From IMG/VR virus record IMGVR_UViG_2563366831_000005: DNA of 17,162 nt. The stretch is one strand, 5' to 3'. The position numbers and the translations under genes are program-made. Origin of the DNA: a virus. Lineage: Duplodnaviria > Heunggongvirae > Uroviricota > Caudoviricetes. A model generated the notes under the pieces. That model ran no database searches and was not told where the DNA came from. It was given only the letters and a program-made list of their open reading frames with translations. Position 1 is the first letter of the stretch; each line of letters begins with the position of its first letter. Shown here piece by piece: positions 1-17,162 of the stretch.

Positions 1-569
1 GTGCCGGACGGTCGACGGGCCCATAACGCCTGCTCCAGTGCATCCAGCACGAATGTCGTTTCCATGGACGATGAGACCCGCCACCCCACGATGTATCCGG
101 CAAACACATCAATGATGAACGCCACATAGACGAAGCCCCGCCATGTGCTGACGTAAGTAAAATCAGCCACCCACAGCTGGTCAGGTCGTTCTGCCACGAA
201 CTGACGGTTTACGCGGTCGCCTGCGGCAACGGCTTTCCGGCTGATGGTCGTACGGACCTTTTTACCCCGGAGAACACCGGCAAGTCCCATAACCGCCATG
301 AGACGTGCCACAGTGCATCTGGCCACTCTGATACCTTCCCGTAACAACTGACGCCAGACTTTACGCACACCGTATACCTTGTGATTTTCATCGTATACGC
401 GCTGTATCTCTTTCTTCAGCCAGTCATCGCGCTGCGCACGGGCACTGCGTTTATCCGGATGATGTCGCTGTTGCTGACAGTGGTAATACGTTGACGGGGC
501 AATATGCAGTTCGCTGCATAGCGGTCCGACCCCGTACTGCTCACGCAGCTTATCCAGCAGTGGCATCAT
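1..569 (-). CDS. IS3-family transposase OrfB (DDE integrase domain), 3' end beyond window
   Basis: Minus-strand translation from ATGATG at 569-564 reads [72 protein letters not shown]...[57 protein letters not shown] and stays open to position 1. It is absent from the ORF track only because it has no stop inside the window. Confidence 0.85.
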
Positions 570-892
570 TTTTTCCAGAGGCGGTCGAACTCCGCCTTCG
601 CAAAATAAGCGGAAGCCTGGCGAAGGATATCGTTACTGCGGCGCAGTTCACGATTTTCACGTTCCAGCTCTTTCAGACGCTGACGTTCAGCGGTGGTGAG
701 CCCTCCATCACCACCCCCGGTATCCCGCTCATGCTGGCGAACCCAGACACGCAGAGTCTCCGGCGTACAGCCAATCTTTGGAGCAATGGAACAAATTGTC
801 GCCCATTGTGAGTCATATTCGCTCTGACTTTCCAGAACCATACGGACTGCCCGTTGACGGACTTCGGGGGAAAAACGAGTATTTTTAGTCAT
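566..892 (-). CDS. IS3-family transposase OrfA (helix-turn-helix / leucine-zipper protein)
   Basis: 108 aa [60 protein letters not shown]...[34 protein letters not shown], typical OrfA. Its TGA stop overlaps the orfB ATG. Confidence 0.9.
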
Positions 893-946
893 CCTGTTTA
901 CCTCTTTCTCAGGAAGTTTAGTCTCCAGGATTCCCGGGGCGGTTCA

Positions 947-988
947 GAAATTAAAGCTAAGTTCGGACTGAAAGGAGCAAGTGTATGA
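947..988 (+). pseudogene. 3'-terminal remnant (13 codons) of the phage replication gene (P position in lambda), cut off by the IS
   Basis: The frame ending in TGA at 986-988 overlaps the ren ATG at 985-987 as ATGA, the P/ren junction architecture of lambda. The open frame (EIKAKFGLKGASV*) begins exactly at the IS terminus. Identity as P is inferred from position only. Confidence 0.4.
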
Positions 989-1275
989 AGGGCAAAGAGG
1001 CAATTATTCATTACCTGGGGACGCATAATAGCTTCTGTGCGCCGGACGTTGCCGCGCTAACAGGCGCAACAGTAACCAGCATAAATCAGGCCGCGGCTAA
1101 AATGGCACGGGCAGGTCTTCTGGTTATCGAAGGTAAGGTCTGGCGAACGGTGTATTACCGGTTTGCTACCAGGGAAGAACGGGAAGGAAAGATGAGCACG
1201 AACCTGATTTTTAAGGAGTGTCGCCAGAGTGCCGCGATGAAACGGGTATTGGCGGTATATGGAGTTAAAAGATGA
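985..1275 (+). CDS. ren: Ren (Rex-exclusion resistance protein), lambda-like
   Basis: 96 aa, MKGKEAIIHYLGTHNSFCAPDVAALTGATVTSINQAAAKMARAG...; matches lambda Ren in length and sequence as recalled. Sits directly upstream of the tR2-like terminator and ninB. Confidence 0.85.
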   Translation: MKGKEAIIHYLGTHNSFCAPDVAALTGATVTSINQAAAKMARAGLLVIEGKVWRTVYYRFATREEREGKMSTNLIFKECRQSAAMKRVLAVYGVKR

Positions 1276-1300
1276 CCATCTACATTACTGAGCTAATAAC

Positions 1301-1333
1301 AGGCCTGCTGGTAATCGCAGGCCTTTTTATTTG
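1301..1333 (+). terminator. Intrinsic terminator, tR2-like (between ren and ninB)
   Basis: AGGCCTGC (1301-1308), loop tggtaatc, GCAGGCCT (1317-1324), then TTTTTATTT. Same position as lambda tR2. Confidence 0.6.
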
Positions 1334-1348
1334 GGGGAGAGGGAAGTC

Positions 1349-1789
1349 ATGAAAAAACTAACCTTTGAAATTCGATCTCCAGCACATCAGCAAAACGCTA
1401 TTCACGCAGTACAGCAAATCCTTCCAGACCCAACCAAACCAATCGTAGTAACCATTCAGGAACGCAACCGCAGCTTAGACCAAAACAGGAAGCTATGGGC
1501 CTGCTTAGGTGACGTCTCTCGTCAGGTTGAATGGCATGGTCGCTGGCTGGATGCAGAAAGCTGGAAGTGTGTGTTTACCGCAGCATTAAAGCAGCAGGAT
1601 GTTGTTCCTAACCTTGCCGGGAATGGCTTTGTGGTAATAGGCCAGTCAACCAGCAGGATGCGTGTAGGCGAATTTGCGGAGCTATTAGAGCTTATACAGG
1701 CATTCGGTACAGAGCGTGGCGTTAAGTGGTCAGACGAAGCGAGACTGGCTCTGGAGTGGAAAGCGAGATGGGGAGATCGGGCTGCATGA
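1349..1789 (+). CDS. ninB: NinB (Orf-family recombination protein)
   Basis: 146 aa from ATG 1349 (MKKLTFEIRSPAHQQNAIHAVQQILPDPTKPIVVTIQERNRSLDQNRKLWACLGDVSRQVEWHGRWLD...), preceded by a GGGAGAGGGAAG ribosome-binding site. The track's start at 1331 is a TTG extension. Confidence 0.9.
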   Translation: MKKLTFEIRSPAHQQNAIHAVQQILPDPTKPIVVTIQERNRSLDQNRKLWACLGDVSRQVEWHGRWLDAESWKCVFTAALKQQDVVPNLAGNGFVVIGQSTSRMRVGEFAELLELIQAFGTERGVKWSDEARLALEWKARWGDRAA

Positions 1790-2313
1790 CTATCAAATCA
1801 AATACGCCAGCACACGACAAGGACTGCTGGCAAACGCCGCTTTGGCTTTTTGATGCACTGGATATTGAGTTTGGATTCTGGCTGGATTCGGCAGCGAGCG
1901 ACAAAAATGCTCTGTGTGCTCACTGGCTAACTGAGGCCGACGACGCGCTCAATTCTGAGTGGGTAAGCCACGGTGCAATCTGGAATAACCCACCGTACAG
2001 CAATATCAGGCCGTGGGTGGAAAAAGCTGCTGAGCAGTGCATACAACAGCGACAGACGGTAGTTATGCTTGTGCCAGAGGATATGTCAGTCGGATGGTTC
2101 AGCAAGGCTCTGGAGAGTGTCGACGAAGTTCGCATTATCACTGATGGACGGATTAATTTTATCGAACCATCGACAGGGCTGGAGAAGAAGGGAAACAGCA
2201 AAGGCTCCATGCTGCTGATTTGGCGACCGTTCATCAGTCCTCGACGGATGTTTACTACCGTATCCAAAGCGGCATTGATGGCGATCGGGCAGGGCGTCAG
2301 GAGGGCGGCATGA
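1786..2313 (+). CDS. Phage DNA N6-adenine methyltransferase (Dam-type, orphan)
   Basis: ATG 1786 overlaps the ninB stop (ATGA). The product [31 protein letters not shown]...[16 protein letters not shown]... carries the NPPY catalytic motif of N6-adenine methyltransferases. No restriction endonuclease partner is nearby. Confidence 0.8.
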
Positions 2314-2486
2314 GGCGACAGCGACGAAGTTTCACCGACATCATCTGCGAAAACTGCAAATACCTTCCAACGAAACGCTCCAGAAATAAACGCAAGCCAA
2401 TCCCAAAAGAATCTGACGTAAAAACCTTCAATTACACAGCTCACCTGTGGGATATCCGGTGGCTAAGATATCGTGCGAGGAAATGA
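2310..2486 (+). CDS. ninE: NinE
   Basis: 58 aa [58 protein letters not shown]; its ATG overlaps the methyltransferase stop. Matches lambda NinE as recalled. Confidence 0.8.
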
Positions 2487-2830
2487 CAATGGATTATTCA
2501 CAGTTAAGTGATTTTGAAATTAACAGAATGGTAGGAGACATAATTTTTAAAGGCCTTTGGGCAAGTAAACCGGAAACATCAGGGAATAACACCAACAAAT
2601 GGTATTACGGAAATGCTGATACAACTTTTGAGCCATTAAATCATTTGCCTGACTACTGCAATGATCCGAGCGCTTCATGGCCGATTATTGAGAAATACAG
2701 GATTTCTATCTTAGACCAGTTAACTGAATGGTGTGTGGATGCAAAAGGCGTAAGCCCAATATTTGATACCAGACCTCTCCGCGCCGCCATGATTGTCTTT
2801 CTCCTGATGCAGGAGGCCAATAATGCTTAG
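2483..2830 (+). CDS. NinX-like nin-region protein of unknown function (P22 NinX family position and size)
   Basis: 115 aa from ATG 2483, overlapping the ninE stop (ATGA): [89 protein letters not shown].... Visibly more AT-rich than the flanking genes. Family name is from memory and tentative. Confidence 0.55.
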
Positions 2831-3017
2831 CCCATCTCAATCCCTTCAATACCTGAAAGGAAGCATAGAGCGGGCTTCAATGTGCACAGAGTGGATTCTA
2901 TCTAGGTTTAGCGCATACAGAAGATTGCCGGTAAAGGGCATGCCAAGCAAGTCGATGCTGCATATGCAAAAGAATGCGCGCTGGAAGGTATGGCGAGAAC
3001 ACAGTTTATCTGGCTGA
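2823..3017 (+). pseudogene. Chimeric ORF: NinF-like N-terminus running out of frame into a ybcO-like remnant
   Basis: ATG 2823 lies 6 nt after AGGAGG (2811-2816). The first ~18 codons, [18 protein letters not shown], resemble the lambda NinF N-terminus. The rest (…ILSRFSAYRRLPVKGMPSKSMLHMQKNARWKVWREHSLSG) has no recognisable family and overlaps the ybcO-like frame out of phase. Confidence 0.35.
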
Positions 3018-3040
3018 AAGAGGGGGTTATTAAGGCGTGA
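2951..3040 (+). pseudogene. 3' remnant of a ybcO-like (DUF1364-type) nin gene, no start codon
   Basis: The frame ending TGA 3038-3040 overlaps the rusA GTG and reads ...[29 protein letters not shown], matching the C-terminus of DLP12 YbcO as recalled. Upstream the same frame hits TAG at 2909-2911 and the similarity is lost. Confidence 0.4.
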
Positions 3041-3399
3041 ATACCTACAATATCACATTACCCTGGCCGCCGAGCAATAATCGCTATTACCGCCATAATC
3101 GCGGGCGCACGCACATCAGCGCAGAGGGGCAGGCATACCGCGAAAACGTCGCCCGAATCATTAAAAACGCAATGCTGGATATCGGCCTGGCTATGCCTGT
3201 GAAAATCCGCATTGAGTGTCACATGCCGGATCGCCGTCGCCGTGACCTGGATAATCTACAAAAGGCCGCTTTTGACGCACTCACCAAAGCAGGTTTCTGG
3301 CTGGATGATGCTCAGGTCGTTGATTACCGCGTTGTGAAGATGCCGGTTGTCAAAGGTGGAAAGCTGGAACTGACCATCACTGAACAGGGAGATGAATGA
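3037..3399 (+). CDS. rusA: RusA Holliday-junction resolvase
   Basis: 120 aa, [103 protein letters not shown]...; GTG start. Essentially the E. coli prophage RusA sequence. Confidence 0.9.
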
Positions 3400-3536
3400 T
3401 GTTTGAGTTTTATATGGCAGAACTTCTTCGCCACCGCTGGATGCGCCTGCGCTTATATCGTTTCCCCGGTTCTGTTTTGACCGATTACCGAATACTGAAG
3501 AATTACGCCAAAACACTGACAGGAGCAGGAGTATGA
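3396..3536 (+). CDS. ylcG: YlcG-like small protein (46 aa)
   Basis: ATGATG at 3396 overlaps the rusA stop. The product [46 protein letters not shown] matches DLP12 YlcG as recalled. Below the ORF track's length cutoff. Confidence 0.55.
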
Positions 3537-3621
3537 AGTCAGAGATAACAATCAACTAATACTGTTTTGTTGATTTTTGCTTGTAATTGGCGTTCTGGTC
3601 TGAGTTTTGTGGAGTAAGTTG

Positions 3622-4005
3622 ATGCGTGATATTCAGATGGTTCTTGAGCGTTGGGGAGCGTGGGCGGCTAATAATCATGAAGATGTGACCTGGTCGTCCA
3701 TTGCCGCCGGTTTTAAGGGATTAATTCCTTCAAAAGTAAAATCTCGCCCACAATGTTGTGACGATGACGCGATGATCATTTGCGGGTGCATGGCCCGTCT
3801 GAAAAAGAACAACAGCGATTTGCATGATTTATTAGTAGATTATTATGTAGTCGGTATGACATTCATGTCACTGGCAGGTAAGCATTGCTGCTCTGATGGT
3901 TATATCGGGAAAAGGTTACAGAAGGCTGAGGGCATAATTGAAGGGATGTTAATGGCATTAGATATCCGGTTAGAGATGGATATCGTTGTTAATAACTCTA
4001 ATTAA
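3622..4005 (+). CDS. Q: Late-gene antiterminator Q (DLP12 QuuD / phage-21-like type)
   Basis: 127 aa from ATG 3622 ([60 protein letters not shown]...), GGAG ribosome-binding site at 3611-3614. Cysteine cluster consistent with a zinc-binding Q. Sits immediately upstream of the late region. Confidence 0.8.
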
Positions 4006-4145
4006 TATGCCAATTATTTACTAAAAGTTATTAAAAATGGGGCGTTGAGACGCCCCCAAAAATAAAGGGTAATATATAACAGAAGGTTTATATAGTTAGA
4101 AGCAAGGTTGTGCTTCTAAAGGAAGTGGCTTGAGGGAGCCACTTA
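4006..4145 (+). promoter_or_regulatory. Candidate late promoter / Q-utilisation region (PR'-qut position)
   Basis: Position immediately downstream of Q, as in lambdoid phages. AT-rich with TTGAGA and TAATAT/TATATA hexamers, but I could not assign a convincing -35/-10 pair with canonical spacing. Confidence 0.25.
4039..4056 (-). terminator. Intrinsic terminator on the minus strand (distal terminator for the porin transcript)
   Basis: GGGGCGT (4039-4045), loop tgag, ACGCCCC (4050-4056). On the minus strand it is followed by ATTTTTAATAACTTTT; on the plus strand the tail is A-rich, so it is minus-specific. Confidence 0.4.
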
Positions 4146-4185
4146 TATGTTGGGGAGGCAACGCCTCCCGCAACATATCTTTTTC
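4146..4185 (+). terminator. Strong intrinsic terminator on the plus strand (tR'-like, downstream of Q)
   Basis: 15-bp interrupted stem: ATATGTTG-GGGAGGC, loop AAC, GCCTCCC-(g)-CAACATAT (4146-4179), followed by CTTTTT (4180-4185). Abuts the porin stop codon at 4195-4197. Confidence 0.55.
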
Positions 4186-4194
4186 GTAATCAGA

Positions 4195-5292
4195 TTAGAA
4201 CTGGTAAACCAGACCTACAGCAACGATGTCATCAGTGCTTACACCGAGTGCTTTAGTGAAGTCATTTTTGTCAAGCAGGTTGATTTTGTAATCAACGAAA
4301 GTAGACATATTTTTGTTGAAGTAATAGGTTGCACCTACATCAACATATTTGACTAAGTCCTGATCGCCCCATACTCCAAGATCCTTACCTTTAGATTGCA
4401 GGTAAGCAACGGACGGACGCAGACCGAAATCGAACTGATATTGTGCAACAGCTTCGAAGTTTTGGGCTTTATTAGCAACGAAGTGATCAGCAAATACAGT
4501 CATATTCTGGGTTTCAGAATAGGTAGTGGCCAGGTAAATGTTGTTAGCGTCATATTTCAGACCTGCGGCCCAAACTTCTGCATTTTTACCGGAAGCAAAT
4601 ACTTCAGGAAGAACTTTCCCTGCATTAACTTGAGTGTCGGTACGATCAGATTTCGCATAAGTTGCACCGATACCGAATCCTTCGTATTCATAGGTAGCAG
4701 AGAAACCGAAGCCATCACCGTTACCTTCAGTGTAGTTATCGAAATCGCTACGATCGTTTTTGCCTTGGTACTGAGCAGCAAAGTTCAGACCATCAACCAG
4801 ACCAAAGAAGTCGTTGTTACGATAGGTTGCAACACCAGTGGTGCGACCAGTCATGAACACATCTGTTTGGGTCCAGGTATCGCCACCGAATTCTGGCAGA
4901 ACGTCAGTCCACGCACCGATGTCGTATGCTACACCGTAGTTACGGCCGTAATCGATTGAGCCGTAGTCACCGAATTTCAGGCCTGCAAATGCAAGACGGG
5001 TTTTGTCTTTGGAGGAACCTTGAGATTCAGCGCGGTTGCCTTTGAATTCATATTCCCACTGACCGAAACCAGTCAGTTGATCGTTGATTTGGGTTTCACC
5101 TTTGAAGCCAAGACGGGCATAAGTAGTATCACCATCATCTGCATCATTAGAGGAGAAGTAGTGCTTGGCATTAACTTTCCCGTACAGATCCAGCTTGTTA
5201 CTGTCTTTATTATAAATTTCAGCTGCCTGAGCAGACATCGCCATCAGTACTGATGCAGCTACAGCAGAAATTGCCACTGTTAATTTTTTCAT
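4195..5292 (-). CDS. nmpC: Phage-encoded OmpC-family outer-membrane porin (NmpC/Lc type), intact
   Basis: 365 aa with a signal peptide ([23 protein letters not shown]|AEIYNK) and typical porin sequence through the C-terminal ...VGLVYQF. Uninterrupted by any IS. Confidence 0.9.
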
Positions 5293-5880
5293 CGTGAGCC
5301 CTTTTTTTTGAACTATTATTAAAAAATGATGTCACTGCGCGATAAATATTCATCTAATCAATGTGATTATTTCAAGATGTAAGTTTTAGTTTCTCATTTA
5401 ATTTGTGAAGTAGATCTCTATTTTTATCTGAACTTTTTCTATCGAAACCTATTTATGGCTCTTATTTGAACAAAAATAAACCTATTAGCTAATTTATATT
5501 AATGGTTGTTATTTATGGAGGTTCTATAATTCAGCAGTTTAATTTAAATCAACTAAAAATAACGTCTGAAATTATTTATTGGTTATTTGTTGAGGTTTTC
5601 TTATGTATTTGTGGTGGTGTTTTGAACACTCGGTAGCATTCTCATAAATATCATTCAGTGGTTTACGTACGTAAAAAATTGGTTATGCTGTTAAGAGTGG
5701 TTACTTCGTCACACAGCTTAAACCCGCCGTCGAGCTGGTTTTTCCATTTTTTGAGTCTCGATATTAGCTGATAACTCAATACCTGAGTTATTCACTGACT
5801 CCGAGTCTGTTACGTTTCTGCTTTTTTGCGATACGTTGTATTCCCTCAATTTACACCCGCTTTGTCTGCGAGGTGGGGTT

Positions 5881-6096
5881 ATGAAATCCATGGATAAGTT
5901 AACAACGGGTGTCGCCTATGGCACCTCAGCAGGTAGTGCCGGTTACTGGTTTTTACAGCTGCTCGATAAAGTCACGCCCTCACAGTGGGCAGCAATAGGT
6001 GTGCTGGGTAGCCTGGTATTTGGCCTGCTGACGTACCTGACAAACCTTTATTTCAAGATTAAAGAAGATAAGCGCAAGGCTGCGAGAGGTGAATAA
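5881..6096 (+). CDS. S: Class II holin, phage-21 S-type pinholin with dual-start motif
   Basis: 71 aa [71 protein letters not shown], with two transmembrane segments and Met1/Met4 dual starts. GGTGGGG ribosome-binding site upstream. The track's 5836 start is an unsupported extension. Confidence 0.85.
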
Positions 6097-6590
6097 TGCC
6101 TCCATCATTACGAAAAGCCGTTGCTGCTATTGGTGGCGGAGCAATTGCTATAGCATCAGTGTTAATCACTGGCCCAAGTGGTAACGATGGTCTGGAAGGT
6201 GTCAGCTACATACCATACAAAGATATTGTTGGTGTATGGACTGTATGTCACGGGCATACAGGAAAAGACATCATGCTCGGTAAAACGTATACCAAAGCAG
6301 AATGCAAAGCACTCTTGAATAAAGACCTTGCCACTGTCGCCAGACAAATTAACCCGTACATCGAAGTCGATATACCGGAAACAACGCGCGGCGCTCTTTA
6401 CTCATTCGTTTACAACGTGGGTGCTGGCAATTTCAGAACATCGACGCTTCTTCGCAAAATAAACCAGGGCGATATCAAAGGCGCATGTGATCAGCTACGT
6501 CGCTGGACATATGCTGGCGGTAAGCAATGGAAAGGTCTCATGACTCGTCGTGAGATTGAGCGTGAAATCTGTTTGTGGGGTCAGCAATGA
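6096..6590 (+). CDS. R: SAR endolysin (phage-21 R-type lysozyme with N-terminal signal-anchor-release domain)
   Basis: 164 aa. N-terminal Gly/Ala-rich weakly hydrophobic segment ([19 protein letters not shown]) followed by a T4-lysozyme-like domain. ATG overlaps the holin stop (TAATG). Confidence 0.9.
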
Positions 6591-7048
6591 ACAGAGTAAC
6601 CGCGATTATCTCCGCTCTGGTTATCTGCATCATCGTCTGCCTGTCATGGGCTGTTAATCATTACCGTGATAACGCCATTACCTACAAAGCCCAGCGCGAC
6701 AAAAATGCCAGAGAACTGAAGCTGGCGAACGCGGCAATTACTGACATGCAGATGCGTCAGCGTGATGTTGCTGCGCTCGATGCAAAATACACGAAGGAGT
6801 TAGCTGATGCGAAAGCTGAAAATGATGCTCTGCGTGATGATGTTGCCGCTGGTCGTCGTCGGTTGCACATCAAAGCAGTCTGTCAGTCAGTGCGTGAAGC
6901 CACCACCGCCTCCGGCGTGGATAATGCAGCCTCCCCCCGACTGGCAGACACCGCTGAACGGGATTATTTCACCCTCAGAGAGAGGCTGATCACTATGCAA
7001 AAACAACTGGAAGGAACCCAGAAGTATATTAATGAGCAGTGCAGATAG
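6587..7048 (+). CDS. Rz: Rz inner-membrane spanin
   Basis: 153 aa from ATG 6587, overlapping the endolysin stop (ATGA). N-terminal transmembrane segment then a coiled-coil-like periplasmic region; matches lambda Rz. Confidence 0.85.
6807..6989 (+). CDS. Rz1: Rz1 outer-membrane lipoprotein spanin, nested in the +1 frame of Rz
   Basis: 60 aa [60 protein letters not shown]: lipobox VVGC and a proline-rich mature peptide, wholly embedded in Rz. Confidence 0.8.
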
Positions 7049-7079
7049 AGCTGCCCATATCGATGGGCAACTCATGCAA

Positions 7080-7373
7080 TTATTGTGAGCAATACACACG
7101 CGCTTCCAGCGGAGTATAAATGCCTAAAGTAATAAAACCGAGCAATCCATTTACGAATGTTTGCTGGGTTTCTGTTTTAACAACATTTTCTGCGCCGCCA
7201 CAAATTTTGGCTGCATCAACAGTTTTCTCCTGTCCAATTCCCGAAACGAAGAAATGATGGGTGATGGTTTCCTTTGGTGTTACTGCTGTCGGTTTGTTTC
7301 CAACAGTAAACGTCTGTTGAGCACATCCTGTAATAAGCATTGCCAGAGCGGCAGAAAACAACATTTTTTTCAT
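7080..7373 (-). CDS. bor: Bor outer-membrane lipoprotein (Iss-family serum-resistance lysogenic-conversion protein)
   Basis: 97 aa from the internal Met of track ORF 7080-7421: MKKMLFSAALAMLITGCAQQTFTVGNKPTAVTPKETITHHFFVSGIGQEKTV..., lipobox LITGC, AGGA ribosome-binding site on the minus strand. Matches lambda Bor. Confidence 0.85.
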   Translation of the reverse strand: MKKMLFSAALAMLITGCAQQTFTVGNKPTAVTPKETITHHFFVSGIGQEKTVDAAKICGGAENVVKTETQQTFVNGLLGFITLGIYTPLEARVYCSQ

Positions 7374-7735
7374 CTTATTATCCTGCATTGTTAAAAACGG
7401 CAGAATCCTATGTGACAACAATTAAACGATAGTTAAATGGATTGATGAAAATTAAAACTATATAGGTGTACGCTCAGACTATTGGAGGAAGTTGGGGGCA
7501 CTCAGAATCCTGTGGAATGAAATAAACCGCTCTTTCTGTCCATTACCCTTTTAGCTGCGCTGTATCGTCGCCGTATTCCCGCATTAACCATGACCGTAGC
7601 CCGACGGGGAATTCCTTCTGCGTGAGTGTGCGGGAATAATCAAAAACGATGCACACCGGGTTTTACTGTGCTGACAGACGCAGGGTTACCCTCATAGTCG
7701 CTTTTCCGGTGCGATGGTGGAAGAAACCGGGATGT

Positions 7736-7930
7736 TTATTCATCATCACTTTGGATTGATGTATATGCTCTCTTTTCTGACGTTAGTCTCCGACGGCAGG
7801 CTTCAATGACCCAGGCTGAGAAATTCCCAGACCCTTTTTGCTCAAGAGCGATGTTAATTTGTTCAATCATTTGGTTAGGAAAGCGGATGTTGCGGGTTGT
7901 TGTTCTGCGGGTTCTGTTCTTAGTTGACAT
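7736..7930 (-). CDS. YlcI-like small protein (DUF3950-type), function unknown
   Basis: 64 aa MSTKNRTRRTTTRNIRFPNQMIEQINIALEQKGSGNFSAWVIEACRRRLTSEKRAYTSIQSDDE. Same position (just upstream of cos and the Nu1 homolog) as ylcI in DLP12, as recalled. Confidence 0.55.
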   Translation of the reverse strand: MSTKNRTRRTTTRNIRFPNQMIEQINIALEQKGSGNFSAWVIEACRRRLTSEKRAYTSIQSDDE

Positions 7931-8129
7931 GAGGTTGCCCCGTATTCAGTGTCGCTGATTTGTATTGTCTGAAGTTGTTTTTACGTTAAGTTGATGCAGA
8001 TCAATTAATACGATACCTGCGTCATAATTGATTATTTGACGTGGTTTGATGGCGTAGATGCACGTTGTGATATGTAGATGATAATTATTATCATTTTTCG
8101 GGTCCTTTCCGGCGATCCGACAGGTTACG

Positions 8130-8141
8130 GGGCGGCGACCT
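8130..8141. other. cos: cosN cohesive-end site (12-nt lambda-type overhang GGGCGGCGACCT), flanked by cosQ (left) and cosB (right)
   Basis: ...ATCCGACAGGTTACG|GGGCGGCGACCT|CGCGGGTTTTCGCTATTTATGAAAATTTTCCGG... reproduces the junction of lambda's right and left ends as recalled. The Nu1 gene follows about 180 bp downstream. Confidence 0.8.
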
Positions 8142-8318
8142 CGCGGGTTTTCGCTATTTATGAAAATTTTCCGGTTTAAGGCATTTCCGTTCTTCTTCGT
8201 CGTAACTTAATGTTTTTATTTAAAATACCCCCTGAAAAGAAAGGAAACGACAGGTGCTGAAAACGAGCTTTTGGGCCTCTGTCGTTTCCTTTCTCTGTTT
8301 TTGGCCGTGGAATGAACA

Positions 8319-8838
8319 ATGGAAGTCAACAAAAAGCAGCTGGCTGACATTTTCGGTGCGAGTATCCGTACCATTCAGAACTGGCAGGAACAGGGAATGC
8401 CCGTTCTGCGAGGCGGTGGCAAGGGTAATGAGGTGCTTTATGACTCTGCCGCCGTTATAAGATGGTATGCCGAAAGGGATGCTGAAATTGAGAACGAAAA
8501 GCTGTGCCGGGAAGTTGAAGAACTGCGGCAGGCCAGCGAGACAGATCTCCAGCCAGGGACTATTGAGTACGAACGCCATCGACTTACGCGTGCGCAGGCC
8601 GACGCACAGGAGCTGAAAAATGCCAGAGACTCCGCTGAAGTGGTGGAAACCGCATTCTGTACTTTCGTGCTGTCGCGGATCGCAGGTGAAATTGCCAGTA
8701 TTCTCGACGGGATCCCCCTGTCGGTGCAGCGGCGTTTTCCGGAACTGGAAAACCGACATGTTGATTTCCTGAAACGGGATATCATCAAAGCCATGAACAA
8801 AGCAGCCGCGCTGGATGAACTGATACCGGGGTTGCTGA

Positions 8839-8864
<26 letters not shown>
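8319..8864 (+). CDS. nu1: Terminase small subunit Nu1
   Basis: 181 aa MEVNKKQLADIFGASIRTIQNWQEQGMPVLRGGGKGNEVLYDSAAVIRWYAER...; N-terminal winged helix-turn-helix. Matches lambda Nu1. Confidence 0.9.
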
Positions 8865-12545
<3,681 letters not shown>

Positions 12546-12565
<20 letters not shown>

Positions 12566-13865
12566 TCTCCCGCATATTGCCAGCATGGCCTTTAATGAGC
12601 CGCTGATGCTTGAACCCGCCTATGCGCGGGTTTTCTTTTGTGCGCTTGCAGGCCAGCTTGGGATCAGTCGCCTGACGGATGCAGTATCCGGCGACAGCCT
12701 GACTGCCGGAGAGGCACCCGCGGCGCTGGCGTTATCCGGTGATGATGACGGACCACGACAGGCCCGCAGTTATCAGGTCATGAACGGCATCGCCGTGCTG
12801 CCGGTGTCCGGCACGCTGGTCAGCCGGACGCGAGCGCTGCAGCCGTATTCGGGGATGACCGGTTACAACGGCATTATCGCCCGTCTGCAACAGGCTGCCA
12901 GCGACCCGATGGTGGACGGCATTCTGCTCGATATGGATACGCCAGGCGGGATGGTGGCAGGGGCATTTGACTGCGCTGACATCATCGCCCGTGTGCGTGA
13001 CATAAAGCCGGTATGGGCGCTGGCCAACGACATGAACTGCAGTGCAGGTCAGTTGCTTGCCAGCGCCGCCTCCCGACGTCTGGTCACGCAGACCGCCCGG
13101 ACAGGCTCCATCGGCGTCATGATGGCTCACAGTAATTACGGTGCTGCGCTGGAGAAACAGGGCGTGGAAATCACGCTGATTTACAGCGGCAGCCATAAGG
13201 TGGATGGCAACCCCTACAGCCATCTACCGGGTGATGTCCGGGAGACACTGCAGTCCCGGATGGATGCAACCCGCCGGATGTTTGCGCAGAAGGTGTCGGC
13301 ATATACCGGCCTGTCCGTGCAGGCTGTGCTGGATACCGAGGCTGCAGTGTACAGCGGTCAGGAGGCCATTGATGCCGGACTGGCTGATGAACTTGTCAAC
13401 AGCACCGATGCGATCACTGTTATGCGTGATGCACTGGATGCACGTAAATCCCGTCTCTCAGGAGGGCGAATGACCAAAGAGACTCAATCAACAACTGTTT
13501 CAGCCACTGCTTCGCAGGCTGACGTTACTGACGTGGTGCAAGCGACGGAGGGCGAAAACGCCAGCGCGGCGCAGCCGGACGTGAACGCGCAGATCACCGC
13601 TGCGGTTGCGGCAGAAAACAGCCGCATTATGGGGATCCTCAACTGTGAGGAAGCTCACGGACGCGAAGAACAGGCACGTGTGCTGGCCGAACCCCCCGGT
13701 ATGACCGTGGAAACGGCCCGCCGCATTCTGGCAGCTGCACCACAGAGTGCACAGGCGCGCAGTGACACTGCGCTGGATCGTCTGATGCAGGGGGCACCGG
13801 CACCACTGGCTGCAGGTAACCCGGCATCTGATGCCGTTAACGATTTGCTGAACACACCAGTGTAA
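12546..13865 (+). CDS. C: Head maturation protease / minor capsid protein C (S49/ClpP-like)
   Basis: GTG 12546 (VTAELRNLPHIASMAFNEPLMLEPAYARVFFCALAGQLGI...) in the frame of track ORF 12411-13865; 1320 bp as in lambda C. The track's 12411 start would overlap B by 155 nt and is rejected. Confidence 0.8.
13260..13865 (+). CDS. nu3: Scaffolding protein Nu3, in-frame internal start within C
   Basis: In-frame ATG 13260 (MDATRRMFAQKVSAYTGLSVQAVLDTEAAVYSGQEAIDAGLADELV...) sharing the C stop codon; nested C/Nu3 arrangement of lambda. Confidence 0.65.
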   Translation: MDATRRMFAQKVSAYTGLSVQAVLDTEAAVYSGQEAIDAGLADELVNSTDAITVMRDALDARKSRLSGGRMTKETQSTTVSATASQADVTDVVQATEGENASAAQPDVNAQITAAVAAENSRIMGILNCEEAHGREEQARVLAEPPGMTVETARRILAAAPQSAQARSDTALDRLMQGAPAPLAAGNPASDAVNDLLNTPV

Positions 13866-13874
13866 GGGATGTTT

Positions 13875-14207
13875 ATGACGAGCAAAGAAACCTTTACCCA
13901 TTACCAGCCGCTGGGCAACAGTGACCCGGCACATACGGCAACCGCGCCCGGCGGATTGAGTGCGAAAGCGCCTGCAATGACCCCGCTGATGCTGGACACC
14001 TCCACCCGTAAGCTGGTTGCGTGGGATGGCACCACCGACGGTACTGCCGTTGGCATTCTGGCGGTTGATGCTGACCAGACCAGCACCACGCTGACGTTCT
14101 ACAAGTCCGGCACGTTCCGTTATGAGGATGTGCTCTGGCCGGAGGCTGCCAGCGACGAGACGAAAAAACGGACCGCGTTTGCCGGAACGGCAATCAGCAT
14201 CGTTTAA
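13875..14207 (+). CDS. D: Head decoration protein D
   Basis: 110 aa from ATG 13875, [110 protein letters not shown]. The track's 13869 start adds two residues. Confidence 0.9.
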
Positions 14208-14225
14208 CCTTACCCTTCATCACTA

Positions 14226-14249
14226 AAGGCCGCCTGTGCGGCTTTTTTT
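14226..14249 (+). terminator. Hairpin plus T-tract between D and E (terminator-like structure)
   Basis: AAGGCCGC, loop ctgt, GCGGCTTT (14226-14245) followed by a T run; a second T run sits at 14256-14262, just before the E ATG. Confidence 0.4.
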
Positions 14250-14262
14250 ACGGGATTTTTTT

Positions 14263-15288
14263 ATGTCGATGTACACAACCGCCCAGCTGCTGGCGGCAAA
14301 TGAGCAGAAATTTAAGTTTGATCCGCTGTTTCTGCGTCTCTTTTTCCGTGAGAGCTATCCCTTCACCACGGAGAAAGTCTATCTCTCACAAATTCCGGGA
14401 CTGGTAAACATGGCGCTGTACGTTTCGCCGATTGTTTCCGGTGAGGTTATCCGTTCCCGTGGCGGCTCCACCTCTGAATTTACGCCGGGATATGTCAAAC
14501 CCAAGCATGAGGTGAATCCGCAGATGACCCTGCGTCGCCTGCCGGATGAAGATCCGCAGAATCTGGCGGACCCGGCTTACCGCCGCCGTCGCATCATCCT
14601 GCAGAACATGCGAGACGAAGAGCTGGCCATTGCTCAGGTCGAAGAGATGCAGGCCGTTTCTGCTGTGCTTAAGGGCAAATACACCATGACCGGTGAAGCC
14701 TTCGATCCGGTTGAGGTGGATATGGGCCGCAGTGCGGCGAACAACATCACACAGTCCGGTGGTACGGAGTGGAGCAAGCGTGACAAGTCCACGTATGACC
14801 CGACCGACGATATCGAAGCCTATGCGCTGAACGCCAGCGGCGTGGTGAATATCATCGTGTTTGATCCGAAAGGCTGGGCGCTGTTCCGTTCCTTCAAAGC
14901 CGTCAAGGAGAAGCTGGATACCCGTCGCGGCTCTCATTCCGAGCTGGAGACAGCGGTAAAAGACCTGGGCGAAGCGGTGTCCTATAAGGGGATGTATGGC
15001 GATACGGCGATCGTCGTGTATTCCGGACAGTACGTGGAAAACGACGTCAAAAAGAACTTCCTGCCGGACAACACGATGGTGCTGGGGAACACTCAGGCAC
15101 GCGGTCTGCGCACCTATGGCTGCATTCAGGATGCGGACGCACAGCGCGAAGGTATTAACGCCTCTGCCCGCTACCCGAAAAACTGGGTGACCACCGGCGA
15201 TCCGGCGCGTGAGTTCACCATGATTCAGTCAGCACCGCTGATGCTGCTGGCTGATCCTGATGCGTTCGTGTCCGTACAACTGGCGTAA
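14263..15288 (+). CDS. E: Major capsid protein E
   Basis: 341 aa from ATG 14263, MSMYTTAQLLAANEQKFKFDPLFLRLFFRESYPFTTEKVYLSQIPGLVNMALYVSPIVSGEVIRSRGGSTSEFTPGYVKPKHEV...; lambda gpE. The track's 14236 start is an extension. Confidence 0.92.
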   Translation: MSMYTTAQLLAANEQKFKFDPLFLRLFFRESYPFTTEKVYLSQIPGLVNMALYVSPIVSGEVIRSRGGSTSEFTPGYVKPKHEVNPQMTLRRLPDEDPQNLADPAYRRRRIILQNMRDEELAIAQVEEMQAVSAVLKGKYTMTGEAFDPVEVDMGRSAANNITQSGGTEWSKRDKSTYDPTDDIEAYALNASGVVNIIVFDPKGWALFRSFKAVKEKLDTRRGSHSELETAVKDLGEAVSYKGMYGDTAIVVYSGQYVENDVKKNFLPDNTMVLGNTQARGLRTYGCIQDADAQREGINASARYPKNWVTTGDPAREFTMIQSAPLMLLADPDAFVSVQLA

Positions 15289-15329
15289 TCATGGCCCTTC
15301 GGGGCCATTTTCTCTCTGTGGAGGAGTCC

Positions 15330-15725
15330 ATGACGAAAGATGAACTGATTGCCCGTCTTCAGGTGCTGGGTGAGCAACTGAACCGTGATGTCAGCCTGAC
15401 GGGGACGAAAGAAGAACTGGTGCTCCGTGTGGCAGAGCTGGAAGAGGAGCTTGATGACACGGATGACGCTGCCGGTCAGGACACATCTGTCAGCCCGGAA
15501 AATGCGCTGACCGGACATGAAAATGAGGTGGTATCAGCGCAGCCGGATACCGTGATTGATACGGCTGCTCTGGTCACGGTCGTGGCACTGGTGACGCTGC
15601 ATACTGATGCACTTCACGCCACGCGGGATGAGCCTGTGGCATTTGTGCTGCCGGGAACGGCGTTTCGTGTCTCTGCCGGTGTGGCAGCCGAAATGACAGA
15701 ACATGGCCTGGCCAGAATGCAATAA
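15330..15725 (+). CDS. FI: DNA-packaging / head assembly protein FI
   Basis: 131 aa from ATG 15330, MTKDELIARLQVLGEQLNRDVSLTGTKEELVLRVAELEEELDDTDDAAGQDTS...; GGAGGAG ribosome-binding site at 15318-15324. Confidence 0.85.
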   Translation: MTKDELIARLQVLGEQLNRDVSLTGTKEELVLRVAELEEELDDTDDAAGQDTSVSPENALTGHENEVVSAQPDTVIDTAALVTVVALVTLHTDALHATRDEPVAFVLPGTAFRVSAGVAAEMTEHGLARMQ

Positions 15726-15736
15726 CGGGAGGCGCT

Positions 15737-16090
15737 GTGGCTGATTCCGATAACCTGTTCGATGCTGCCATTGCCCGCGCCGATGAAACGATACGCGGGT
15801 ACATGGGAACGTCAGCCACCATGACATCCGGTGAGCTGTCCGGTGCTGTGATACGTGGTGTTTTTGATGACCCTGAAAATATCAGCTATGCCGGACAGGG
15901 CGTGCGCGTTGAAGGCTCCAGCCCGTCCCTGTTTGTCCGGACTGATGATGTGCGGCAGCTGCGGCGTGGAGACACACTGACCATCGGCGAGGAAAACTTC
16001 TGGGTGGACCGGATTTCGCCGGATGATGGCGGAAGCTGTCATCTCTGGCTTGGGCGTGGCGTGCCGCCTGCCGTTAACCGTCGCCGCTGA
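15737..16090 (+). CDS. FII: Head-tail connector (head completion) protein FII
   Basis: 117 aa, GTG start, MADSDNLFDAAIARADETIRGYMGTSATMTSGELSGAVIRGVFDDPENISYAGQGVRVEGSSPSLFVRTDDVRQLRRGDTLTIGEENFWVDRISPDDGG... Confidence 0.88.
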   Translation: MADSDNLFDAAIARADETIRGYMGTSATMTSGELSGAVIRGVFDDPENISYAGQGVRVEGSSPSLFVRTDDVRQLRRGDTLTIGEENFWVDRISPDDGGSCHLWLGRGVPPAVNRRR

Positions 16091-16101
16091 AAGGGGGATG
16101 T

Positions 16102-16680
16102 ATGGCCATAAAAGGTCTTGAGCAGGCCGTTGAAAACCTCAGCCGTATCAGCAAAACGGCGGTGCCTGGTGCCGCCGCAATGGCCATTAACCGCGTTGCG
16201 TCATCCGCGATATCGCAGTCGGCGTCACAGGTTGCCCGTGAGACAAAGGTACGCCGGAAACTGGTAAAGGAAAGGGCCAGGCTGAAAAGGGCCACGGTCA
16301 AAAATCCGCAGGCCAGAATCAGGGTTAACCGGGGGGATTTGCCCGTAATCAAGCTGGGTAACGCGCGGGTTGTCCTTTCCCGCCGCAGACGTCGTAAAAA
16401 GGGGCAGCGTTCATCCCTGAAAGGTGGCGGCAGCGTGCTTGTGGTGGGAAACCGTCGTATTCCCGGCGCGTTTATTCAGCAACTGAAAAATGGCCGCTGG
16501 CATGTCATGCAGCGTGTGGCCGGGAAAAACCGTTACCCCATTGATGTGGTGAAAATCCCGATGGCGGTGCCGCTGACCACGGCGTTTAAACAGAATATTG
16601 AACGGATACGGCGTGAACGTCTTCCGAAAGAGCTGGGCTATGCGCTGCAGCATCAACTGAGAATGGTAATAAAGCGATGA
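16102..16680 (+). CDS. Z: Tail assembly/completion protein Z
   Basis: 192 aa MAIKGLEQAVENLSRISKTAVPGAAAMAINRVASSAISQSASQVARETKVRRKLVKERARLKRATVKNPQARIRVNRGDLPVIKLGNARV...; lambda gpZ. Confidence 0.88.
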   Translation: MAIKGLEQAVENLSRISKTAVPGAAAMAINRVASSAISQSASQVARETKVRRKLVKERARLKRATVKNPQARIRVNRGDLPVIKLGNARVVLSRRRRRKKGQRSSLKGGGSVLVVGNRRIPGAFIQQLKNGRWHVMQRVAGKNRYPIDVVKIPMAVPLTTAFKQNIERIRRERLPKELGYALQHQLRMVIKR

Positions 16681-17072
16681 AACATACTGAACTCCGTGCA
16701 GCCGTACTGGATGCACTGGAGAAGCATGACACCGGGGCGACGTTTTTTGATGGTCGCCCCGCTGTTTTTGATGAGGCGGATTTTCCGGCAGTTGCCGTTT
16801 ATCTCACCGGCGCTGAATACACGGGCGAAGAGCTGGACAGCGATACATGGCAGGCGGAGCTGCATATTGAAGTTTTCCTGCCTGCTCAGGTGCCGGATTC
16901 AGAGCTGGATGCGTGGATGGAGTCCCGGATTTATCCGGTGATGAGTGATATCCCGGCACTGTCAGATTTGATCACCAGTATGGTGGCCAGCGGCTATGAC
17001 TACCGGCGCGACGATGATGCGGGCCTGTGGAGTTCAGCCGATCTGACTTATGTCATTACCTATGAAATGTGA
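16677..17072 (+). CDS. U: Tail terminator protein U
   Basis: 131 aa [93 protein letters not shown]...; ATG overlaps the Z stop (ATGA). Confidence 0.9.
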
Positions 17073-17079
17073 GGACGCT

Positions 17080-17162
17080 ATGCCTGTACCAAATCCAGTA
17101 ATGCCGGTGAAAGGGGCCGGGACCACCCTGTGGGTTTATAAGGGGAACGGTGACCCTTATGC
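17080..17162 (+). CDS. V: Major tail tube protein V, 5' end only (continues beyond window)
   Basis: ATG 17080 preceded by GAGGA; reads [27 protein letters not shown]..., the lambda gpV N-terminus. Confidence 0.8.

Follow-up and report, generated by a model that had tools for sequence, protein, structure and literature searches.

Where the lambda-type replication gene P would be expected, directly upstream of ren, a stretch of 17,162 nucleotides of prophage DNA (here called the window) begins inside an insertion sequence (IS) and passes from it into a remnant of 13 codons. The locus raises the question of whether the replication gene has been lost to the element or only broken by it, and what this would mean for a prophage that carries packaging and head genes next to the lesion. 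Comparison of the IS junctions in sibling assemblies with the same region of intact relatives points, with high probability, to a simple IS insertion into the P gene of a lambdoid prophage of the argU type, with probable impairment of replication, as the explanation of the whole arrangement.

Positions 1-946 of the window correspond to the transposase-proximal 946 bp of a 1310-bp element of the IS629/IS1203 group of the IS3 family, lying on the minus strand. The following parts of the element were located.

Positions 1 to 946, minus strand: IS629/IS1203-group insertion sequence, the 946 of 1310 bp that adjoin the left inverted repeat (IRL); the remaining 364 bp lie beyond the window start.
Positions 3 to 569, minus strand: IS orfB, first 189 codons, with HTH_21 and the start of the rve/DDE domain; partial, running off the window start.
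Positions 495 to 611, minus strand: ALIL pseudoknot, the -1 frameshift stimulator between orfA and orfB (Rfam RF01497).
Positions 566 to 892, minus strand: IS orfA, 108 amino acids, the HTH N-terminal part of the transposase (Pfam HTH_Tnp_1, E = 7e-13).
Positions 922 to 946, minus strand: 25-bp terminal inverted repeat of the IS (IRL), TGAACCGCCCCGGGAATCCTGGAGA on the minus strand, read directly.

The arrangement is that of the IS3 family, with an orfA carrying the HTH motif and an orfB carrying the DDE/rve domain, joined by a programmed -1 frameshift. The partial orfB matched HTH_21 (E = 2e-18) and rve (E = 7e-16), the ALIL pseudoknot scored 120 bits against a gathering score of 50, and a near-identical copy of the element bears the RefSeq remark 'programmed frameshift'. 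Over positions 1-946 the window shows 100% identity with the complete copy of contig CAMIUR010000025.1, in which orfB is complete and open (295 amino acids), and 99.9% identical to a complete IS3-family copy of 1310 bp in E. coli 118UI. Both complete copies measure 1310 bp and are bordered by 25-bp inverted repeats, TGAACCGCCCCGGG(AAT/TTT)CCTGGAGA; they show the length of about 1.3 kb and the imperfect 5'-TG...CA-3' repeats of the IS3 family, of which the window holds the IRL end only. This terminus reads ...ggcggttca, with ggttca at 941-946 as the end of the IS, and the window IRL matches that of the full 118UI copy, IRR being different only at AAT/TTT. With the O157:H7 copies that RefSeq annotates as 'IS3-like element IS1203 family', these 946 positions share 96.4% identity (34 mismatches). 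The cut-off for an isoform, taken against RefSeq-annotated copies, was a nucleotide identity above approximately 95%, which is ISfinder practice. The 3-bp target-site duplication (TSD) characteristic of the IS629/IS1203 group was found as GAA in P and as ACA on both sides of the 118UI copy, which lies inside rusA. Judged by its identity to the copies of 118UI, CAMIUR010000025.1 and the IS1203 family, the element is fairly named 'IS629-type' at the level of the group.

To the right of the element lie the end of P and the beginning of ren.

Positions 947 to 949, plus strand: right-hand copy of the TSD, GAA (P codon 221), from junction comparison.
Positions 947 to 988, plus strand: orphan 3' remnant of P, comprising the duplicated codon 221, codons 222-233 and the stop, without a start codon of its own.
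Positions 985 to 1275, plus strand: ren, 96 amino acids, from the list of open reading frames; relatives annotate it as protein ren or as hypothetical protein.

The frame at 947-988 translates as EIKAKFGLKGASV followed by a stop, and its DNA is identical to the last 42 nt of a 233-residue P gene of family PF06992 in five complete genomes, E47 and CP55_Sichuan among them. By homology, and in its position before ren, the remnant corresponds to the C-terminal end of PF06992 proteins, the family recorded on the intact 233-residue protein; lacking a start codon, it is untranslatable and is not a gene. Its TGA (986-988) overlaps the ATG of ren (985-987) in the sequence ATGA. The original prediction had set the IS terminus against this frame and its TGA across the start of ren, and direct reading of the sequence confirms these coordinates and this reading of the junction. 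The accompanying statement that only the last 13 codons of the replication gene remain is correct within the window but not beyond it, since the window stops inside the IS. The ren protein is identical behind an intact P in 27 contigs; here ren would be deprived of the translational coupling to a translated P that the ATGA overlap could provide.

A simple insertion with a 3-bp TSD predicts the far junction ...GCA GAA/TGA ACC... (the slash marks the border of the IS), at which P stops after codon 221. The in-frame stop is supplied by the first three bases of the IS, TGA, and the product is P(1-221). Exactly this protein of 221 amino acids is present among public proteins (ELC23504.1, EOU37985.1, MCE0524621.1 and others), and the GenBank entry of the allele is titled 'Replication protein P'. 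A 4-bp TSD was considered and rejected: the fusion protein expected from it is absent from a collection of 15 billion proteins in which the 3-bp product is present. A 220-residue form of P is also found in the protein collection, in short contigs and annotated as partial. The contigs coding for P(1-221) come from four NCBI assemblies and five sequencing runs, and in them O (299 amino acids) is followed by P(1-221) and then by 29-1310 bases of the IS; these are nine places out of 24 contigs read, the index listing 30 blocks. The far-side junction of the sibling assemblies reads ...GCA GAA/TGAACCGCC, or more fully ...gcgaagatcgcagaa/TGAACCGCCCCGGGTTTCC. This left junction (gcaGAA/TGAACC) was found in CAMIUR010000025.1, in KB732262.1 and in a third sibling contig, and the right junction, GGTTCA/GAAatt (GGTTCA/gaaattaaag), in the window and in KB732262.1. 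GAA is single in the intact P of E47 and stands here on both sides of the IS, as a 3-bp TSD. Such a clean duplication therefore indicates simple transposition. The insertion falls after nt 663 (codon 221/222), so that P loses the last 12 of its 233 residues, and on the far side of the IS the O gene, intact with 299 amino acids, stands beside P codons 1-221. Instead of a complete P frame with its C-terminal lasso helix there is a split one, whose upstream part ends at E221. As read from these junctions, P is split 221/12 by the IS, not deleted or replaced.

The earlier reading, in which the IS takes the place of the replication gene, is thus right in that the element interrupts a lambda-type P just upstream of ren, but O and P codons 1-221 adjoin it on the other side. 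The check that had been proposed, extension to the left, gave the expected outcome: sibling assemblies supplied the far IS end, GAA flanks both ends, and the 5' part of P continues the frame of 947-988.

The two sides of the element are brought together in scaffold KB732262.1 (GCA_000350725.1), which contains O, P(1-221) and IS nt 1-95, then an N-gap, and then the window from position 609 onward at 100% identity. By coordinate arithmetic this scaffold terminates exactly at window position 17162. From the content of KB732262.1 and the shared end, the window is its terminal contig or that of a sibling assembly, with the upstream part of P (P') placed to its left by mate pairs; the linkage of P' to the window rests on this one mate-pair scaffold, the P' side being absent from the window sequence itself. 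The left arm, from int to P' (10.7 kb), is 99.96-99.98% identical to E47 and gapless, and in the sibling scaffolds everything from int to O is intact. The N-gap over the IS in KB732262.1 (sequence coordinates 10759-13003) spans 2245 nt, against the 877 nt that a single 1310-bp IS would leave. These additional 1368 nt nearly equal a second IS in length and could reflect a loose gap estimate or a second IS copy.

In the proposed course of events, a 1310-bp element of the IS629/IS1203 group would have transposed, by cut-and-paste or copy-out, into codon 221/222 of the P gene of a lambdoid prophage whose closest relatives occupy argU (the DLP12 site). The target GAA would have been duplicated on insertion, and the element, being antisense to the pR operon, would have placed its terminal TGA in frame after the duplicated GAA. 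The products would be a P cut to residues 1-221 and an orphan remnant of 13 codons before ren. Given an undamaged IS and flanks that hardly differ from those of prophages with an intact P, the insertion is, on this sequence evidence, recent. The prophage could still derepress, excise and express its late genes under N and Q antitermination, and would be expected to release hardly any phage, or none, in the absence of another lambdoid prophage in the same cell that provided P.

The effect of the truncation on P can be judged from the cryo-EM structures of DnaB with lambda P, in which residues 193-233 form domain IV, the C-terminal 'lasso', with a helix ordered at approximately 211-232 that inserts between the DnaB helices DH and LH (PMC12661323). 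Ala215, Lys218 and Ile219 of lambda P pack on DnaB Trp294, while Ile222 and Phe226 pack on Met301 and Leu305, and the lasso is judged by the authors to be probably the first element to bind DnaB stably (PMC12661323). A P that stops at E221 lacks Ile222, Phe226 and the remainder of the helix, and retains Ala215, Lys218 and Ile219. Among 22 P homologues (63-98% identity) E221 is invariant, G227 is conserved in at least 90% and the motif [IL][RK]x[KR][FHY]G[LMF] is kept; therefore, the C-terminal segment is under constraint. The truncation takes away the stretch Ile222-Leu228, conserved in these homologues. With half of the lasso helix gone, Ile222 and Phe226 included, P(1-221) probably loads the helicase at ori-lambda very poorly or not at all, and a replication defect is likely. 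In this light the earlier proposal that such a prophage cannot replicate autonomously is reasonable. Residual activity is possible, as only 5% of P is lost and the contacts of Ala215, Lys218 and Ile219 are kept. A search of the literature for C-terminal truncations of lambda P found none, and returned only a C-terminal SPA-tag fusion and an N-terminal deletion of 76 codons.

The insertion could on the other hand be nearly neutral, P(1-221) loading enough DnaB for the prophage to be replication-competent and inducible. The loss of only 12 of 233 residues would agree with this, as would the retention of domains I-III and of half of the lasso helix with its residues Ala215, Lys218 and Ile219, but the segment lost is conserved across Enterobacteriaceae homologues and includes two of the five hydrophobic contacts named for the helix that opens the DnaB DH-LH interface. 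The presence of the P(1-221) allele in several independent assemblies and runs speaks for stable inheritance; such persistence is, however, equally expected of a dead prophage. Transcription offers this reading a further argument, there being no excess of terminators on the pR-sense strand of the IS. Taken together, we regard a near-neutral insertion as rather unlikely, and an impaired P as the preferred interpretation.

Impairment of P need not silence the genes beyond it. In a scan for consensus terminators, the pR-sense strand of the IS had terminator-like sites in numbers no higher than shuffled controls, and N-antiterminated transcription would be expected to read through, as is established for lambda. 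On this basis the late genes may still be expressed once the prophage is induced.

The flanking prophage is preserved. Window positions 947-17162 match five complete E. coli chromosomes over their full length, with four SNPs in 16,216 bp relative to E47; three are synonymous and the fourth, a P383/T383 difference in gpC, does not single out the window, which thus has no protein of its own. In these relatives a complete lambdoid prophage of some 42 kb, with an intact P, lies at tRNA-Arg/intD (argU, the DLP12 site), in the order O (299 amino acids), P (233 amino acids), ren, nin region, Q, porin moron, lysis genes, iss/bor, cos, and the head and tail series. The intact P ends ...LAKIAEIKAKFGLKGASV, the DNA reading ...gcgaagatcgcaGAAattaaag. 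Of 5426 complete E. coli genomes, 1047 contain at least 80% of this 16.2-kb region. The isolated viable phage mEp332 matches it with 97.7% identity, and ECOR-derived phages propagated on K-12 with approximately 97%. By these identities the flanks belong to a functional phage type. The main features to the right of ren are listed here.

Positions 1301 to 1324, plus strand: strong tR2-like intrinsic terminator between ren and ninB (8-bp stem with 6 GC pairs, followed by a T-run, from the scan), a usual lambdoid feature.
Positions 1349 to 4005, plus strand: nin region and Q, comprising ninB, a Dam-type methylase, ninE, ninX, rusA, ylcG and quuD; intact, with proteins equal to those of E47.
Positions 8130 to 8141, plus strand: cosN, GGGCGGCGACCT, one exact match where 0.09 are expected by chance.
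Positions 8319 to 17072, plus strand: nu1, A, W, B (portal), C, D, E, FI, FII, Z and U, for packaging, head and head-tail joining; all open.

The terminator at 1301-1324 we take to be tR2, from its place in the lambda map. All 25 open reading frames from ren to gpU are open and free of internal stops, and 24 of their proteins are identical to those of E47, gpC differing by one residue. Nu1, gpA, the portal and capsid protein E were matched by Pfam. The prediction that cos, terminase and head genes are uninterrupted is borne out by the exact cosN match, the open frames, the Pfam matches and the identity to E47. The window ends 83 nt into gpV (17080-17162), so that the visible morphogenesis genes stop at gpU and the tail genes fall outside it. 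Its right end coincides with that of KB732262.1 and is probably an assembly break at a repeat common to another lambdoid prophage.

Insertions of the same kind are known from O157:H7 prophages that carry IS1203 in P (TW14359, EC4115 and 8368). The elements are of the same IS group, 1310 bp long and 96.4% identical, and the target is likewise a lambda-type P adjoining ren. They differ from the present case in the host prophage, the E. coli lineage and the insertion point, which lies after nt 267 in the TW14359/EC4115 lineage and after nt 603 in 8368, compared with nt 663 here. IS1203 occupies 1338-2647 of each extracted O157:H7 sequence (8368; TW14359/EC4115 lineage), and the P fragments, of 267+438 and 603+102 nt, both sum to 705, that is 702+3, which implies a 3-bp duplication. 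RefSeq calls the O157:H7 halves incomplete 'replication protein P' pseudogenes, and IS1203 insertions are found in many O157:H7 genomes. With 221 of 233 residues kept, the truncation described here is the mildest of the three and the loss of function accordingly less certain than in O157:H7. The 702-bp P gene has thus been hit by an IS at least three separate times, after nt 267, nt 603 and nt 663. The junction query by which such insertions were sought detects those in the same orientation only.

IS629 has been described as a main driver of Stx-prophage variation (PMC4587872). In O157 Sakai, lambdoid prophages with single IS lesions have been measured for induction, circularisation and packaging, and those with an IS disruption can still excise, and other prophages in the same cell can help them to replicate or to be packaged (Asadulghani et al. 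2009, PMC2669165). The present element resembles the Sakai pool in having a single IS lesion in an essential gene and being otherwise intact over the part seen. Its relatives share with DLP12 of K-12, at argU, the tRNA-Arg/intD site and a DLP12-like gene series (nin-rusA-ylcG-quuD-porin-essD-rrrD-rzpD-bor-ylcI-nohD). DLP12 itself we take to be without replication, head and tail genes, whereas the element studied here has retained O, the greater part of P, cos, terminase and every head gene. The intact sibling P agrees with lambda P (PF06992, the DnaB helicase loader) in having 233 amino acids, the end AEIKAKFGLKGASV, a stop that overlaps the start of ren, and O upstream; unlike lambda P, the copy studied here is split, with residues 1-221 upstream and an untranslatable tail in the window.

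The integrity of the prophage as a unit could have been affected by a subsequent rearrangement, namely an inversion in the source genome by recombination of the IS with an identical inverted copy in the autotransporter gene hyxB, approximately 255 kb away, which would have separated the two halves of the prophage. It is suggested by CAMIUR010000025.1 (75 kb, no Ns), which reads O-P(1-221)-complete IS-hyxB with the flank ctacgg in place of GAA (10664-12006 of the extracted sequence), and by the complete genome MY1-8, whose sibling prophage has an intact P and which contains, about 255 kb from that prophage and inverted to it, an identical IS-hyxB junction in the orientation that an inversion requires (NZ_CP122517.1, 3653475-3654374). 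A short-read assembler passing through two identical 1.3-kb repeats would, however, yield the same chimeric contig, and KB732262.1 shares the contig boundary and the exact end of the window and has mate pairs that link P' to it. Such an inversion, which we hold to be improbable, would at most be a later event, as the GAA duplication shows the primary one to have been a simple insertion.

Simple insertion of an IS into P is ordinary prophage damage, of which both the kind of event and the 221-residue allele were already known. What the locus illustrates is that a draft contig ending inside an IS can make a split gene look deleted, the missing 221 codons and O being on the neighbouring contig. 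The prophage copy, of a common type, is probably not self-sufficient for replication, judging from the predicted P product; it keeps its porin and Iss/Bor morons together with the complete packaging and head genes, a module that a helper prophage could rescue. The allele amounts to a natural deletion of P residues 222-233 and could serve to test in vivo the lasso of the 2025 DnaB-lambda P structures. Insertions of the IS629 group in P might even be selected, P(1-221) being then a domestication allele rather than a product of decay. A crippled P would spare the lysogen both the toxicity of P to DnaB and replicative killing after transient derepression. The lysogen would keep its complete cos, terminase and head module, open to mobilisation by a co-resident lambdoid phage that brings P. 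This idea is a speculative one, to which we give little credence.

The exact right junction gave no single-piece match among 5426 complete E. coli genomes; 34-mer and 20-mer queries across it had none in the contigs of GTDB representative genomes, and the 20-mer none in JGI metagenome contigs. In IMG/VR it was found only as UViG_2563366839_000002, which equals window 609-17162, and the predicted left junction had no match there. Although this absence from complete genomes, GTDB representatives and JGI metagenomes, together with a window that starts inside the IS and stops at a scaffold end as draft contigs do, might recall an assembly artefact in which the assembler ran a contig on into a collapsed IS repeat by mistake, the recurrence of the right junction in UViG_2563366839_000002 and KB732262.1, the complementary left junction in at least nine independent contigs or runs, and a perfect 3-bp duplication of a triplet that is single in intact P, which a chimera would not give, make this hardly conceivable.

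Several minor features accompany the preserved genes. Between Q (3622-4005) and the holin gene (5881-6096) lies the porin moron, an intact gene of 365 amino acids (Porin_1, 4195-5292, minus strand) that relatives annotate as 'porin' or OmpD; its counterpart in K-12 DLP12, nmpC, is presumably IS-disrupted. Downstream of the lysis genes, the iss/bor lipoprotein gene (7080-7373, minus strand, 97 amino acids, Lambda_Bor) is annotated in relatives as 'increased serum survival lipoprotein Iss' and carries a synonymous SNP at 7254 relative to all close relatives checked. A second lesion, in cI, was considered because sibling contigs carry calls of 217 and 231 amino acids, and was dismissed, the DNA being the same and the calls differing only in the choice of start codon. 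Just upstream of rusA, a short DUF1364 fragment at approximately 2951-3040 (plus strand) is annotated as an N-terminally truncated pseudogene in every close relative; as these relatives include prophages with an intact P, this lesion predates the IS event.
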